Assembly: GCA_013265495.1 (NCBI GenBank)
Contig: MU057403.1
Span: 62,001-126,000, forward strand
Reading direction: 5' to 3'
From: Vicugna vicugna
Taxonomy: Eukaryota
DNA: 64,000 bases
Numbering within the stretch: position 1 is the first letter of the stretch; every line of letters begins with the position of its first letter. Both the position numbers and the translations under genes were made by a program. This document shows positions 50,234 to 63,179 of the stretch, piece after piece. A model generated the notes under the pieces. That model did not search any database and was not told the origin of the DNA. It saw nothing but the letters and a program-made list of their open reading frames with translations.

Positions 50234-50380
50234 CTGAGGGGATAACAAAAGAATTCAAAGTTGTGTTGCCCTTTTTACAAATATAGCCTAGTTTCTGAAC
50301 ACACTGCAGATTTTCCCATTTAGCACTTTTCCCAGGGTTTAGTGACACACAGCTTTTCCCCGGTTCTGCTGAAGGACTTC
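50234..50380 (-). CDS. MRC1: MRC1 exon 6 (end of CTLD1), 147 nt
   Basis: (G)SPSAEPGKSCVSLNPGKSAKWENLQCVQKLGYICKKGNTTLNSFVIPS; ccaaag/gtaagt. Confidence 0.97.
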
Positions 50381-50472
50381 CTTTGGGGAAAAGAAAAAAT
50401 AAAAGCGGGATTGTTACAGGGATTACAAGCAGACAGCCTCCCACAGCCCCATGTGTTCATCCTTGGCATTTA

Positions 50473-50556
50473 TTGGATCCCCACTTGCTCTTTTGCTATA
50501 TATTCACCAATAAATATTTACTGACTGCAGAGCAAGAGACACGTTGGGTGTCTATT
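50473..50556 (-). ncRNA. MIR511: mir-511 homologous hairpin in MRC1 intron 5, diverged and possibly non-functional
   Basis: Minus strand AATAGACACCCAACGTGTCTCTTGCTCTGCAGTCAGTAAATATTTATTGGTGAATATATAGCAAAAGAGCAAGTGGGGATCCAA aligns to human pre-mir-511 as recalled; same intron and orientation as human. 5p arm 50522-50542, 3p arm about 50485-50504. Confidence 0.85.
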
Positions 50557-51123
50557 TGTTTTCTCGTCGTTGGATCATTCCAATATCTAAAATGTTGATT
50601 TTATAAGTTGACGTCTTTGAAATAACTTTTTTCCCCCACAGTATCAAATAATAGAGCTGGACCTTAAACCTTGACCAGTCCCCACGCTGGGTTATGTTAT
50701 GTAAGTAGCAAAAGAATACATGATGTTCCAAACCAGTCATGTTAAACAGTGTCCAGACCTCCCAAAACACCTCAGTCAAGCAAACTGTGAGGTCCAGACT
50801 AGAGAATGTCTGGACATGAAAAATCTTTCCCCAGTTAGAAAGAGGAGGCAGAAAAGAAGGCACTGGAGGGGAGAAAGACAAGGGAAGAGATGCTACAGGT
50901 AACACCACGCTACAGTAAATGCAGGTAAAGTGCTCTCGGAGCCAAGACTCTTTCTCGAGATTTTCAACTCAACTTATTAAAGAATATTGTTAATAGTTAA
51001 CCCTTATCTCGTAGCTTATTGGAAGCTGCCTAAAACCCAGATCAAGTCAACTTTCCTAATGCAATCGATACATGCGTTGACACCCACATTTTCATGCTTT
51101 TTCACTACTTTAACATATAATTT

Positions 51124-51252
51124 AAATTTTTTTTTAAATTTTTAATGGGGAGGAGGTAATTTCAGGTTTATTTTTTTAAACAAAGATACTAGGAATTGAA
51201 CCCAAGACCCTGTGCATGCTAGGCATGCACTCTGAGCTATTCCCTTGCCCCC
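51124..51252 (-). mobile_element. tRNA-derived SINE (vic-1-like) with TSD
   Basis: Reverse strand ggggcaagggaatagctcagagtgcatgcctagcatgcacagggtcttgggttcaattcc; ttaacatat(a/g)att on both sides. Confidence 0.88.
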
Positions 51253-52389
51253 TTAACATATGATTTTACAACCAGCGTTCTAAAAGCTAGCTCCATCTCA
51301 CAAGACAGGATAATGAGTCACATTTTGTCAATGACTGTTTTGTGACCTCTGACACATATAGGCCTGGATCCGGGCCACACTTTCCCTTTCCCGCAAGATG
51401 GGAATCACATTACCTGCTCCATAAAGTCTTTGTCAAAATTTTTTGGAAGTTGCTTGAATAGCTCACGAAGAAAAAATTGTTAGTAATCAGGATAAAGATG
51501 TTTTTTAAAATGTGTTGATATTATGACCAAACTCACGGTGTAACTGAACTAACAGATCAGGTATCAGTACTAAAAAGAAGCTTTCTAGTTTCAAGAAACA
51601 ATAATATATTTTATAGCTAATGGTTATTAATGAATATATGAGCTAGTAAATCATAGAGAGTTATTTATCAACAGAACACCATTACCAATTTTAATATATC
51701 AAGTAGTTGCCTTTAAATAGTTGCCATAGTTAAATATTCGAATTCATAGTCTATATTATCTGTGTAAAATGTTCTCATTTCAAATGTAAATGTATTTTAA
51801 TAGATGTAAGTACTCAGTTGAATACTTGATCCAACAATTTATACAATAACAACTTCTAATGTTCCACAAAGTTTCTAATTTTCATTTGAAGAAACTCTTA
51901 TATTACTTCAGAAGGTGATTTAATCTTGTACCTACTTCTCAGGAACTTGGTTTAAAAAGAAAAGACATTTCTTTTTCCTTTCTCATTAATAGTCCTATTT
52001 TATTCCTCACTGAAGTTAAGCCCTCATTTTTCTCACTGAACTCTTAGAATGAAAGTGGTTAAATATTACAATAATAACTTCAAAACTGAGTAATAAAGTG
52101 GCCTGCCTAACAAGGTACAATAATTAAGCAGCAAAGAATAAACTTTAGTCCCCCAGTAAATGATTATTGTTCTCTAATGGTCTGACAGAGCCAACTGGCA
52201 TTCTCCAGTTTAATTTGACTGAGTGAACGGTCAGACAAATCAAATTTTTACACGTAAAAAGCACATCTTAAATTCTCTTGCAGCCATGTTTACCTCTCAT
52301 ATTCCAGAGGCGTCTAGCTGACAGCCCTGTAACCATCATGCATTGAAAGACTACACCGAAAGTCAAATTTCATAGTAAAATCTAATCAA

Positions 52390-52612
52390 CTTGCAGATTC
52401 TAATTAGTATATATAAAATAGATAAACAAGTTTATACTGTATAGCATACGAACTATACTCAATATCTTGCAGTAACTTCTGGTGAAAAAGAATATGAAAA
52501 CAAATATATGTATGCTCCTACATGACTGAGGCATTGTGCTGCACACCAGACATTGCTACAGCTTTGTAAACTGACTGTACTTCAAGAAAAACATTTTTTC
52601 AATTAAAAAAAT
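52390..52612 (+). mobile_element. Short L1 3' end
   Basis: aaatagataaacaagtttatactgtatagca ... tgtaaactgactgtacttcaa. Confidence 0.85.
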
Positions 52613-52734
52613 GAACAACATAGATTCTTTAAAAATTCCCTCTCATGTTTCAGCATATACTGAATATTATTTATTTATTTCAAAGTTTTTCTTTTTAATA
52701 CCATAAGTTACTAATACAGAAAATGGAAAGCTTA

Positions 52735-53461
52735 TTTTTTTATTGAAGTATAGATGATTTACCAGGGTGTGTCAGTTTCTGGTGTACCACATTGTGATTC
52801 CCACACATATGTGTATTTATATTCTTTTTCGTTATAGGCTATATTAAGCTATTGAATATAGTCCCCTGTGCTATACAGCAGAACTTTGTGATTTATGTAT
52901 TTTATATATAATAGTTTATATCTGCAAATCCCAAACATCTAATTTATCCCTCCTCCTCCTTTCCCCTTTGGTAACTATAAGTTTGTTTTCTATGTCTGTG
53001 AGTCTGTTTCTATTTTGTAAATAAGTTCATTTGTATCATTATTTTAGATTCCACATATGTGGTATCATATAATATTTGTCTTTTTCTGTCTGACTTACTT
53101 CACTTAGTATGTTAATCTCTAGGTCCAACCATGTTGCTGCAAATAGCATTATTTCATTCTTTTACACAGCTGAGTAATATTCCATTGCATATACATACCT
53201 AAACTTCTTTATCCAATCATCTGTCCATGGACATTTAGGTTGCTTCCATGTCTTGGCTATTATATATAGTGCTGCTATTAACACTACGGTGCATGTATCT
53301 TTTCAAATTAGACTTCCCTACAGATATATGCCCAGAAGTGGGATTGCTGGATATGTTAACACTATTTTTAGTTTTTTAAGGACACTTCATACTGTTTTCC
53401 ATAATGGTTGCACCAAATTACATTTCCACCAACAGTGCAGGAGGGTTCCCTTTTCTCCACA
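52735..53461 (-). mobile_element. L1 3' end
   Basis: Continuous reverse-complement L1 3' UTR from ttttttattgaagtatag to agggttcccttttctccaca. Confidence 0.92.
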
Positions 53462-54610
53462 GCTGGAGAGTTTAATTTTCTAAGGCAAAAGCAAAAACCA
53501 CTCAATGGCTTTAAAAAAGAAGTCTGACCATATGAAGAACCACCACATCAGTGTTTTCCACAGCAGAACTAGTAAATGAAGATGTGACCCATCCTCTCCC
53601 ACAACTAAGTAGACATCACCAATCCTTAACTGCACTCTTTCTTCATAAATCAAGATTAGTACGAGATAGGGGTGTGGATAGGGAGTTTAGAATCATATTC
53701 ATCTCAGTGCCTTAAGCGGCTACTAACAATGGTTGATATGGGCCAATAAGATGAAGATCTTTCATCATCACTTGTCGTTTTGTTTACTCTCAATAATTAC
53801 CATATTTGTAAAACATCTTTATTATTTAGTCTTCTTTTATGTTCTGTTACCTCAGTGTTATGATAATGTAGAAATAATTAGTTCAGAGCATTTTCTATCC
53901 TTCAAAAACCTGTAAAGTTATTGAAGACTTGATCATCCCCTGTGTTTTCCTACAGACCAACTATGACTTGTCAACAAAACTGCTAATGAATTATTATGCT
54001 AGTATGGAATATTACAATCTGTGACTGATACTATTTTTAGCCCAACTCTATTTGATTCAAAACAGGAGAAAATGGTGTTCCTGTAGACCTTAAGATCATT
54101 ATAATAGGCAGAAATATTGCAACTATCTCATGGGTCAAGATAATGAGAAATTCTCCAGCCCCATTCCCCTCAAATTTAAATTTATCAAATTCATAATGTG
54201 TGTAGATATAAATAAATATTTATAAAATCTTTGAATATACTATATAGCATTATATATCTTTCATAAATATAAAATCAAATTTTTGAACAAAACACCTAGC
54301 AAATGAAGGATGTACCAAGAATATACACTTTAACAGTCTTACATTGATTTGTGTGATAATCCTTCCAGACAAGTTCTTTTCCCAGAAAGCTGGAATAACT
54401 ATATATATTATAGTTTTAGCATATTCAAATCTAGTTGACAGATGTCAAAACAAGGTGAGAAATGGACTGTATTTGATGAAGTCTGCCAGTTCTCCTCTTT
54501 GAGGTCTACATGTGAGATGACGAAGGTTTCCATGGCATCCAGGTAAATTAAATTTAGATGACTTCAGCCAGCTTAATCGTACCTGGTTAATCAGACAAGT
54601 TTTAGCCTAC

Positions 54611-54724
54611 CTGGTAACCAGTTCAGATATCGGAACGGGCTGCCCCCACTCCACTGCCATCCACTGTTGAAACTCAGACTGTTCAGTCCAATCCAGAGTC
54701 CTGACGTCAAGGTACTGGTTAATC
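54611..54724 (-). CDS. MRC1: MRC1 exon 5 (CTLD1), 114 nt
   Basis: (G)LTSTLTSGLWIGLNSLSFNSGWQWSGGSPFRYLNWLP(G), WIGL motif; atatag/gtaggc. Confidence 0.97.
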
Positions 54725-61930: not shown

Positions 61931-63014
61931 AAAGATTGTATGTATAGTGTTTTGGGGAAGTGGGACATATGTAAGTAACTGTCATAAAATTGGTAAACAA
62001 GTAAGAGAAATGCAGATGGAAATGGAAAACACTGCATTTCAACTGTATAAAATTTGGGGAACTTCAGGGACAAGAAGTGACAGGGGAACAGATGTGGAGG
62101 CAAGAAAGTGTGGCAAAGATGAGGAACTTCAAACCTTTCTTTTGTCAAGACTGTGAAATGCATGAAGGGGAACAGCAGTGAGCGGACAGACGGCCACCTC
62201 TGAATGCCAGGCAAAGGTGTGTCGCTAATTATTTGATACGAAATGAGAAGCCACTATGGGCTTTTTGAACACGGTGGCCATTGGACCAGAGCCTTGTTAA
62301 GCTAGCAGCAGTGTCAGGGTGAACTGGCAGGGAGGGGGTTCTGGGGAAGAGGGGGTGCTCGTTCTCCCACATTCATGTCTGGTCCTAATCTCCCTGGTCC
62401 CCAAGTGTGGATTTCAGAAGCTAAAACTGATCTCAAGCAAAACATTAGCTCTTTAAATCTTCACAATCTTATAAGAACAAATGCTTAAACAAACAAACAT
62501 TATGGAAAGAGAATCAGTAAGACCTGAGTACCCATAGAGTCTGGAGTTGAAGAGACAGGAGACAACAAAGACAGCTCTTTACTTGTTCCTGCTTGTGGTG
62601 GCAGCATTTCATTGAATCATATTAAATTCTCTGATGCTAATGGAAAACCTGGGACCTCCGGTTAGAACTAGCCTTCTTGACCAGCATGGTACCCATGCCT
62701 TGTGTCCCAGAACGGCATCACTAATTCATCGTGGCATTTTCTACTTTGAGCTGAGATTAATCCTCAGAATCTTTCTCAGCCCAGGTCCTGGAGCCTGTCA
62801 CAACTGATAGAAGAAAGCTGGCTCATGAGATGACACCTATTTGCCATCCCGAGTGTCTTTTTCAGGGTGCAAATTTGTCACACCCTCAGCACCATCTGTT
62901 CAGGACTGACTCTATCATGATGTCCATATTTACTCGTGCTGTCTGCTTTAAACTCTCTAGAAATAAAATAATCATGACCCCACTCACAATTTTGTTTTCT
63001 TTTCACATCATTAC

Positions 63015-63179
63015 CTGTCAGGTATGTTTGCTCGTGTATCTCTGTGATGCTCAAGAGTTCAGCATTCTGCTGTTGGCAGCTCTTCCTCGCCTGGTGCCAA
63101 GTTAAAGCAGACTTGGAATTTATCTGGTAGGAGATGCTGGTCAGTGGATCTTTAGTCCATAAGCTTTCGCTGCCCTCAA
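63015..63179 (-). CDS. MRC1: MRC1 exon 4 (start of CTLD1), 165 nt
   Basis: Translates (F)EGSESLWTKDPLTSISYQINSKSALTWHQARKSCQQQNAELLSITEIHEQTYLT(G); acceptor ttacag, donor gtaatg; not in ORF track. Confidence 0.97.

Follow-up and report, generated by a model that had tools for sequence, protein, structure and literature searches.

The MRC1 host gene and the intronic hairpin

The window (the whole stretch of 64,000 nucleotides of Vicugna vicugna DNA that was analysed) carries the gene MRC1 on its minus strand. Residues 214–1266 of the Vicugna pacos MRC1 protein (P0050) map to colinear minus-strand blocks spanning positions 1567–63177 of the window, with 1050 of 1053 residues identical. The residues that were not matched as identical (358, 796 and 1093) may be real differences or may fall in split codons. 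Residues 17–155 and 155–227 are encoded by two upstream exons on the same contig, and matches of P0050 on other contigs reach only 46–59% identity. The mapping places exon 4 (residues 214–268) at 63013..63177 and exon 5 (Vicugna pacos residues 269–306) at 54609..54722, both on the minus strand. Exon 6 lies at 50234..50380 on the same strand, where its boundaries read ag/GAAGTCC and CAG/gtaagt, and it contributes the last third of C-type lectin domain 1; the residues it encodes, 307–354 of P0050, are identical in the two proteins. The minus-strand open frames around the hairpin encode thirds of a C-type lectin domain, and when the exon 6 peptide was searched, 31 of the 32 candidates had E ≤ 0.001, with the named ones almost all annotated as (macrophage) mannose receptor. 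The host gene therefore looks intact, as judged from its exons.

The intron between exons 5 and 6 occupies 50381..54608 on the minus strand, with an approximate 5′ end set by the P0050 exon blocks at 54722–54609 and 50378–50235. It is numbered intron 5 by counting a signal-peptide exon that is too short to be detected. This is the position known for miR-511 in mouse, where excerpts of PMC4551340 locate the miRNA in intron 5 of Mrc1. Excerpts of the same paper and of a preprint describe miR-511 as residing in MRC1 and being co-regulated with it in both mouse and human (PMC4551340; bioRxiv 10.64898/2026.04.20.719771).

In the window, the corresponding hairpin lies on the MRC1 sense strand, 93 nt upstream of the 3′ splice site of exon 6. 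A covariance-model search of the 64-kb window with the Rfam mir-511 family (RF01910) matches 50474..50554 on the minus strand with 63.7 bits (E 4.9e-14), and the match covers the full length of the model (positions 1–81 of 81). The preliminary description of this DNA had placed a homologous mir-511 hairpin in an MRC1 intron, and this score, together with the exon mapping that gives intron 5 and the sense strand, bears that assignment out. When RF01910 was run against the whole 2.03-Gb assembly, 50474–50554 was again the sole match (E 5.3e-11), a count that is a lower bound, as 57 of the 422,232 first-look candidates were scored. The mir-511 locus is thus single-copy as far as tested. Since the alignment to RF01910 runs from end to end and the site is the only one found in the assembly, the similarity reflects homology and not chance.

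The match nevertheless falls short of the score at which family membership is curated. At the RF01910 gathering score of 80, the 64-kb window contains no match, and curated mir-511 membership is not reached. The same assembly was searched with control families, and all three of the mammalian miRNA families exceed their gathering scores by 18–26 bits: mir-764 (108.2 bits; gathering score 82), mir-1249 (106.8 bits; 83) and mir-711 (85.9 bits; 68). The plant and insect miRNA families RF01911 and RF01913 have no match in the assembly, as expected, and RF01909, which passes, is a lncRNA region and not a miRNA control. The shortfall in score is specific to the mir-511 locus in that the other tested miRNA families (n = 3) are normally conserved in this genome.

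A stop-free frame of 99 codons (50299–50598, plus strand) crosses exon 6 and the entire hairpin in antisense. This frame is probably a chance occurrence, and the 99-aa plus-strand ORF has no relative in the protein collection searched.

Arms, seeds and predicted structure

The alignment to RF01910 defines the homologues of both mature arms on the minus strand. The 5p-arm homologue is GUGUCUCUUGCUCUGCAGUCA (50522..50542, reading from 50542 to 50522), and the 3p-arm homologue is AAUAUAUAGCAAAAGAGCAA (50485..50504, reading from 50504 to 50485). All arm changes given here are relative to the Rfam consensus line and to the mouse precursor printed in the available part of PMC4551340. At position 7 of the 5p arm (50536), the U of the Rfam consensus and mouse is replaced by C in the window, and at positions 4 and 6 of the 3p arm (50501 and 50499), the G of both references is replaced by A. 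Consequently, neither canonical seed is present: the 5p seed reads UGUCUCU and not UGUCUUU, and the 3p seed reads AUAUAUA and not AUGUGUA. Excerpts of PMC6056075 identify miR-511-3p as the active strand, and it is in this strand, as that source designates it, that both of the 3p-seed changes fall.

Remodelling of the 3p arm at its 3′ end comprises the insertion of a G at 50488, the deletion of one model position and further substitutions. These arm changes (U to C at 5p position 7, G to A at 3p positions 4 and 6, and an altered 3p 3′ end) had all been listed in the preliminary description, and they hold against the Rfam consensus and mouse, both of which differ from the window at the seed positions concerned. 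Counted by eye over the 81 positions of the Rfam consensus, the differences amount to 10 substitutions and 2 indels. Much is also retained. The 5p arm agrees with the consensus at 20 of its 21 positions, the apical GUG of the hairpin is kept, and so are the middle of each arm and the start of the loop, as compared with the mir-511 family. The motif AGCAA now occurs two times in the 3p arm.

The changes affect pairing as well as sequence. Of the 29 pairs in the RF01910 consensus structure, 24 are standard in the window and five are broken, with an additional 1-nt bulge. Two of the broken pairs are C:A mismatches within the duplex (50536:50492 and 50527:50501), and the other family pairs are lost to A:G mismatches at 50519:50508 and 50544:50484 and to a C:A mismatch at 50550:50478. 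The lower stem has lost two of its seven pairs. At 50529:50499, a U:G pair has been turned into U:A. The two duplex C:A mismatches and the change from U:G to U:A were correctly anticipated in the earlier pairing by hand, which also proposed a G:G mismatch; that mismatch arises only with ungapped pairing of the arms, and in Rfam's alignment the G is bulged. The remaining three broken pairs were missing from the earlier list. When the mouse precursor, as printed in the available part of PMC4551340, is paired by hand on the same structure, 2 of 29 pairs are broken, including a C:A in the duplex. On this modelled pairing, the camelid stem is worse than that of mouse, but not by an order of magnitude.

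Minimum-energy folding suggests that the family hairpin is no longer the structure preferred by this sequence. When the 81-nt precursor is constrained to the family structure, it folds at −13.2 kcal/mol, a figure that is uncalibrated against folded mouse or human precursors and makes for a thermodynamic test that discriminates weakly, whereas the free fold reaches −20.4 kcal/mol in a different structure that is not miRNA-like. By computation, then, the family hairpin is not the predicted stable fold of the precursor. The free minimum-energy fold is the same in 81-, 84-, 121-, 161- and 221-nt contexts. For the 84-nt stretch, the predicted energy is −21 kcal/mol (z −2.0), with 7 of 200 shuffles as stable, and the structure is again one other than the family hairpin.

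The free fold comprises a small hairpin, AGACAC/GUGUCU, and a second element at 50484..50536 on the minus strand, in which an 8-bp helix formed by CUUGCUCU (50536–50529) and AGAGCAAG (50491–50484) surrounds a 7-bp helix of A/U pairs. In this second element, both helices are predicted to use derived bases: CUUGCUCU and AGAGCAAG form a perfect 8-bp complement that was created by derived bases, and the two G-to-A changes let the 3p arm pair with the old loop in the 7-bp A/U helix.

The contribution of the individual changes was probed by in-silico reversion. Returning four sites to the Rfam consensus (model positions 19, 54, 56 and 47) brings the family fold from −13.2 to −25.9 kcal/mol, and the four changes would therefore cost approximately 12.7 kcal/mol, which halves the energy of the family fold. 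Together with the five of 29 broken pairs, this supports the earlier proposal of a destabilised stem. After the four reversions, the family fold still accounts for only 6% of the ensemble, and for that reason ensemble share is a poor yardstick for the mir-511 family.

Orthologous hairpins and conservation

Orthologous intron sequence was recovered from spurious open reading frame “proteins” predicted in assembled mammalian DNA, which run from MRC1 intron 5 into exon 6 and were back-translated. These entries (P0029, P0036, P0037, P0030, P0032, P0033 and P0038) are not genes; they are read-throughs of intron 5 and exon 6 that serve as a proxy for the intron sequence. In P0029, P0036 and P0037 (91 aa), the exon part is identical to that of the window and equally to that of five cetacean MRC1 proteins (6 of the 15 listed members are identical). 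Their reading frames start with Met-Cys (AUG UGY) exactly at the 3p arm, which gives G at 3p positions 4 and 6, and this P0029-type 3p arm is one codon (3 nt) shorter, with further changes downstream. The exon part of P0038 (134 aa) is closest to Myotis MRC1, and its frame reads through the entire hairpin. In its 5p arm, positions 4, 5, 10 and 19 depart from the consensus, and its 3p arm keeps the AUGUG start and has several differences beyond position 12.

An assignment of the P0029 type to an Old World camel was considered and dropped, as its exon peptide is equally identical to those of five cetaceans and 23–28% of the determined positions of its intron do not match the window. A phmmer search with P0038 against 1.84 billion representatives returned 104 matches, among which there is no further mammalian ORF that spans the hairpin; the short matches at 53–58% identity look too distant and were set aside. 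A two-motif pattern scan gave no match in prokaryote genome contigs and a single one in metagenome contigs (locus L002), which was rejected as a chance match because it has no similarity outside the pattern.

The A residues at positions 4 and 6 of the 3p arm of the window are derived, since P0029, P0036 and P0037 as well as P0038 keep G at both positions. On the comparison with the P0029 type and P0038, the three seed-region changes are derived. Relative to P0038, 11 of the 52 determined positions of the hairpin are different (21%), a small count from back-translated sequence in which the change of two lineages is summed. The 50-nt 5′ flank (50555–50604, minus strand) differs from P0038 at 3 of 29 positions (10%) and is thus better kept than the hairpin, on counts that are too small to interpret, and the 3′ flank differs at 10 of 40 (25%). 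For P0029, the corresponding differences are 5 of 17 positions (29%) in the 3p part and 11 of 40 (28%) in the 3′ flank; the 5′ flank lies outside P0029. With small, back-translated counts that sum the change of two lineages, the hairpin does not appear visibly better conserved than the adjoining intron in comparison with either P0038 or P0029.

The published record was also searched for miR-511 in related species. According to excerpts of bioRxiv 10.64898/2026.04.20.719771, the miRBase orthologues of miR-511 come from mouse, human, rat and rhesus. In the literature searched, supplementary tables aside, rno-miR-511 is named in 19 papers and bta-, ssc-, chi-, oar-, eca- and cfa-miR-511 (cow, pig, goat, sheep, horse and dog) in none, an absence of names in papers that does not equal absence of the miRNA. 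The same literature contains no report of miR-511 in camelids (camel, alpaca), with only reviews or work on miR-5110 being returned, and a search for MirGeneDB and Mir-511 gave nothing on phylogenetic distribution among the matches listed.

These observations bear on the age of the changes. The weak constraint on the hairpin may be older than the camelids, in which case a camelid-only framing is too narrow; an older change is suggested because the arms have diverged in P0038 and in the P0029 type, and because names for miR-511 are missing for six well-studied Laurasiatheria. On the other hand, the 3p seed kept in P0038 and the P0029 type could mean that the seed is constrained elsewhere in Laurasiatheria and that the camelid change is a real event and not old drift. 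The locus may accordingly reflect a loss in camelids, an older loss in Laurasiatheria, or a miRNA that exists only in the primate and rodent branch.

Status of the locus and comparison with known mir-511

The reading that best fits these results, to which a probability of about 0.6 is assigned, is that the hairpin is a true mir-511 orthologue that is evolving without miRNA constraint, and that most likely it is no longer a working miRNA gene in this lineage or never was one. The hairpin would be transcribed passively within the MRC1 pre-mRNA. Its family-register stem would be too weak, and in competition with a rival fold, to be cropped well by Drosha/DGCR8, and the weak and interrupted lower and middle stem is expected to make a poor Drosha substrate. 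Canonical targeting by miR-511-3p would be lost together with the 3p seed, and the hairpin sequence would be drifting at approximately the rate of the surrounding intron, as under neutral drift.

A drifting relic is likelier than a working gene because both seeds have changed and the stem has been weakened. The preliminary description had offered two readings, pseudogenisation or a re-seeded miRNA. The balance tips towards decay, since the score lies below the gathering threshold while all three controls pass theirs, the energy of the family fold is halved and the hairpin shows no apparent extra conservation relative to its flanks, and it amounts to full proof of neither. There is also evidence that runs counter to decay, in that the 5p arm agrees with the consensus at all but one of its 21 positions and the stretch remains more stable than the majority of its shuffles (z −2.0). 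A working miRNA hairpin can also carry several mismatches.

The same features are what a working gene would draw on. In this alternative, which is possible but less probable, the hairpin is still cropped and diced and yields a camelid miR-511 with new seeds (5p UGUCUCU, 3p AUAUAUA) that is co-expressed with MRC1 in macrophages and has changed targets. It would be consistent with an orthologue that spans the full model, is single-copy and keeps the expected intron and strand within an intact host gene, with the 24 of 29 family pairs that remain and the near-consensus 5p arm, and with an apical GUG that is kept in a stretch that folds somewhat better than its shuffles. However, the family-register fold of −13.2 kcal/mol is outcompeted by another fold, and the two broken pairs among seven lie in the lower stem, which is what Drosha measures from. 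The 63.7 bits below a gathering score of 80, in a genome in which three of three controls pass, and the apparent absence of greater conservation than in the flanks also argue against it. Furthermore, a seed of AUAUAUA would match very common A/U-rich sites, which makes a specific new function less likely. The more far-reaching form of this proposal, that South American camelids possess a re-seeded miR-511 in which the active 3p seed went from AUGUGUA to AUAUAUA, the 5p seed was also altered and the macrophage programme was rewired, is regarded as unlikely.

Function could also reside on the plus strand, which is antisense to MRC1; there, G:U wobbles take the place of the two C:A mismatches, and the best fold is a long family-register hairpin. 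The plus strand of 50473–50556 does fold at −22 kcal/mol (z −2.71), with none of 200 shuffles as stable, and its minimum-energy structure is a single long hairpin. This stability arises because the sense-strand C:A mismatches are G:U wobbles on that strand, and it is probably a trivial effect of transitions. Any hairpin folds on both strands, transitions give a wobble or a mismatch by strand at equal odds so that two or three cases are not significant, and the Rfam score of the plus strand is only 27.1 bits; the antisense proposal is therefore very improbable. Slighter still is the chance that the changes stem from errors in sequencing or assembly, or from a rare allele, with the real sequence of the species being canonical, as twelve differences including two indels over 81 nt are unlike an error pattern. 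In 14 DNA-type runs from several organisms, 0.90–0.99 of the words sampled from the surrounding 1.5 kb are shared, which, the words being unaligned, lends weak support against error. In other runs the shares for this 1.5 kb are 0.38 (RNA run X15), 0.25 (RNA run X17) and 0.34 (X16), and none of these unaligned word counts is evidence of expression, of fixation or of species.

The element is an orthologue of a known miRNA locus in its known place, and its likely decay is an ordinary kind of event. If the decay of the mir-511 orthologue is real, the locus offers a clean example of a host gene that is kept while its intronic miRNA drifts. If the hairpin is instead processed with its new seeds, the locus would amount to a seed substitution carried out by nature, which is a rare case in an orthologous miRNA. 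Should camelids, and perhaps other Laurasiatheria, have no working copy, findings on MRC1/miR-511 feedback in mouse and human would not be transferable to them. Either way, this is a modest point at the level of a lineage and not a new kind of element.

In mouse and human, excerpts of three sources describe miR-511-3p as active and as co-regulated with MRC1 in alternatively activated macrophages or microglia (PMC6056075, PMC4551340, bioRxiv 10.64898/2026.04.20.719771). Relative to mir-511 of these species (RF01910), the vicuña locus has the same host gene, the same intron 5 and the same strand, is single-copy and is homologous over the 81-position model. It departs from the mir-511 family in its score (63.7 bits, below 80), in the change of both seeds and in a stem with 5 of 29 pairs broken and a bulged G, as compared with 2 of 29 broken pairs for mouse when paired by hand. 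The hairpins of P0038 and the P0029 type occupy the same position in the intron, just upstream of exon 6, and all of them, like that of the window, differ from the consensus. Their 3p arms start with AUGUG, which is compatible with the canonical seed, whereas that of the window starts with AUAUA.

That a conserved miRNA is lost or decays in one lineage while its host gene is retained is a general phenomenon. The vicuña locus resembles such cases in having an intact host gene and an intronic hairpin with changes in both seed and stem, and it would be one of them if expression has ceased from a mir-511 that once worked in this lineage.
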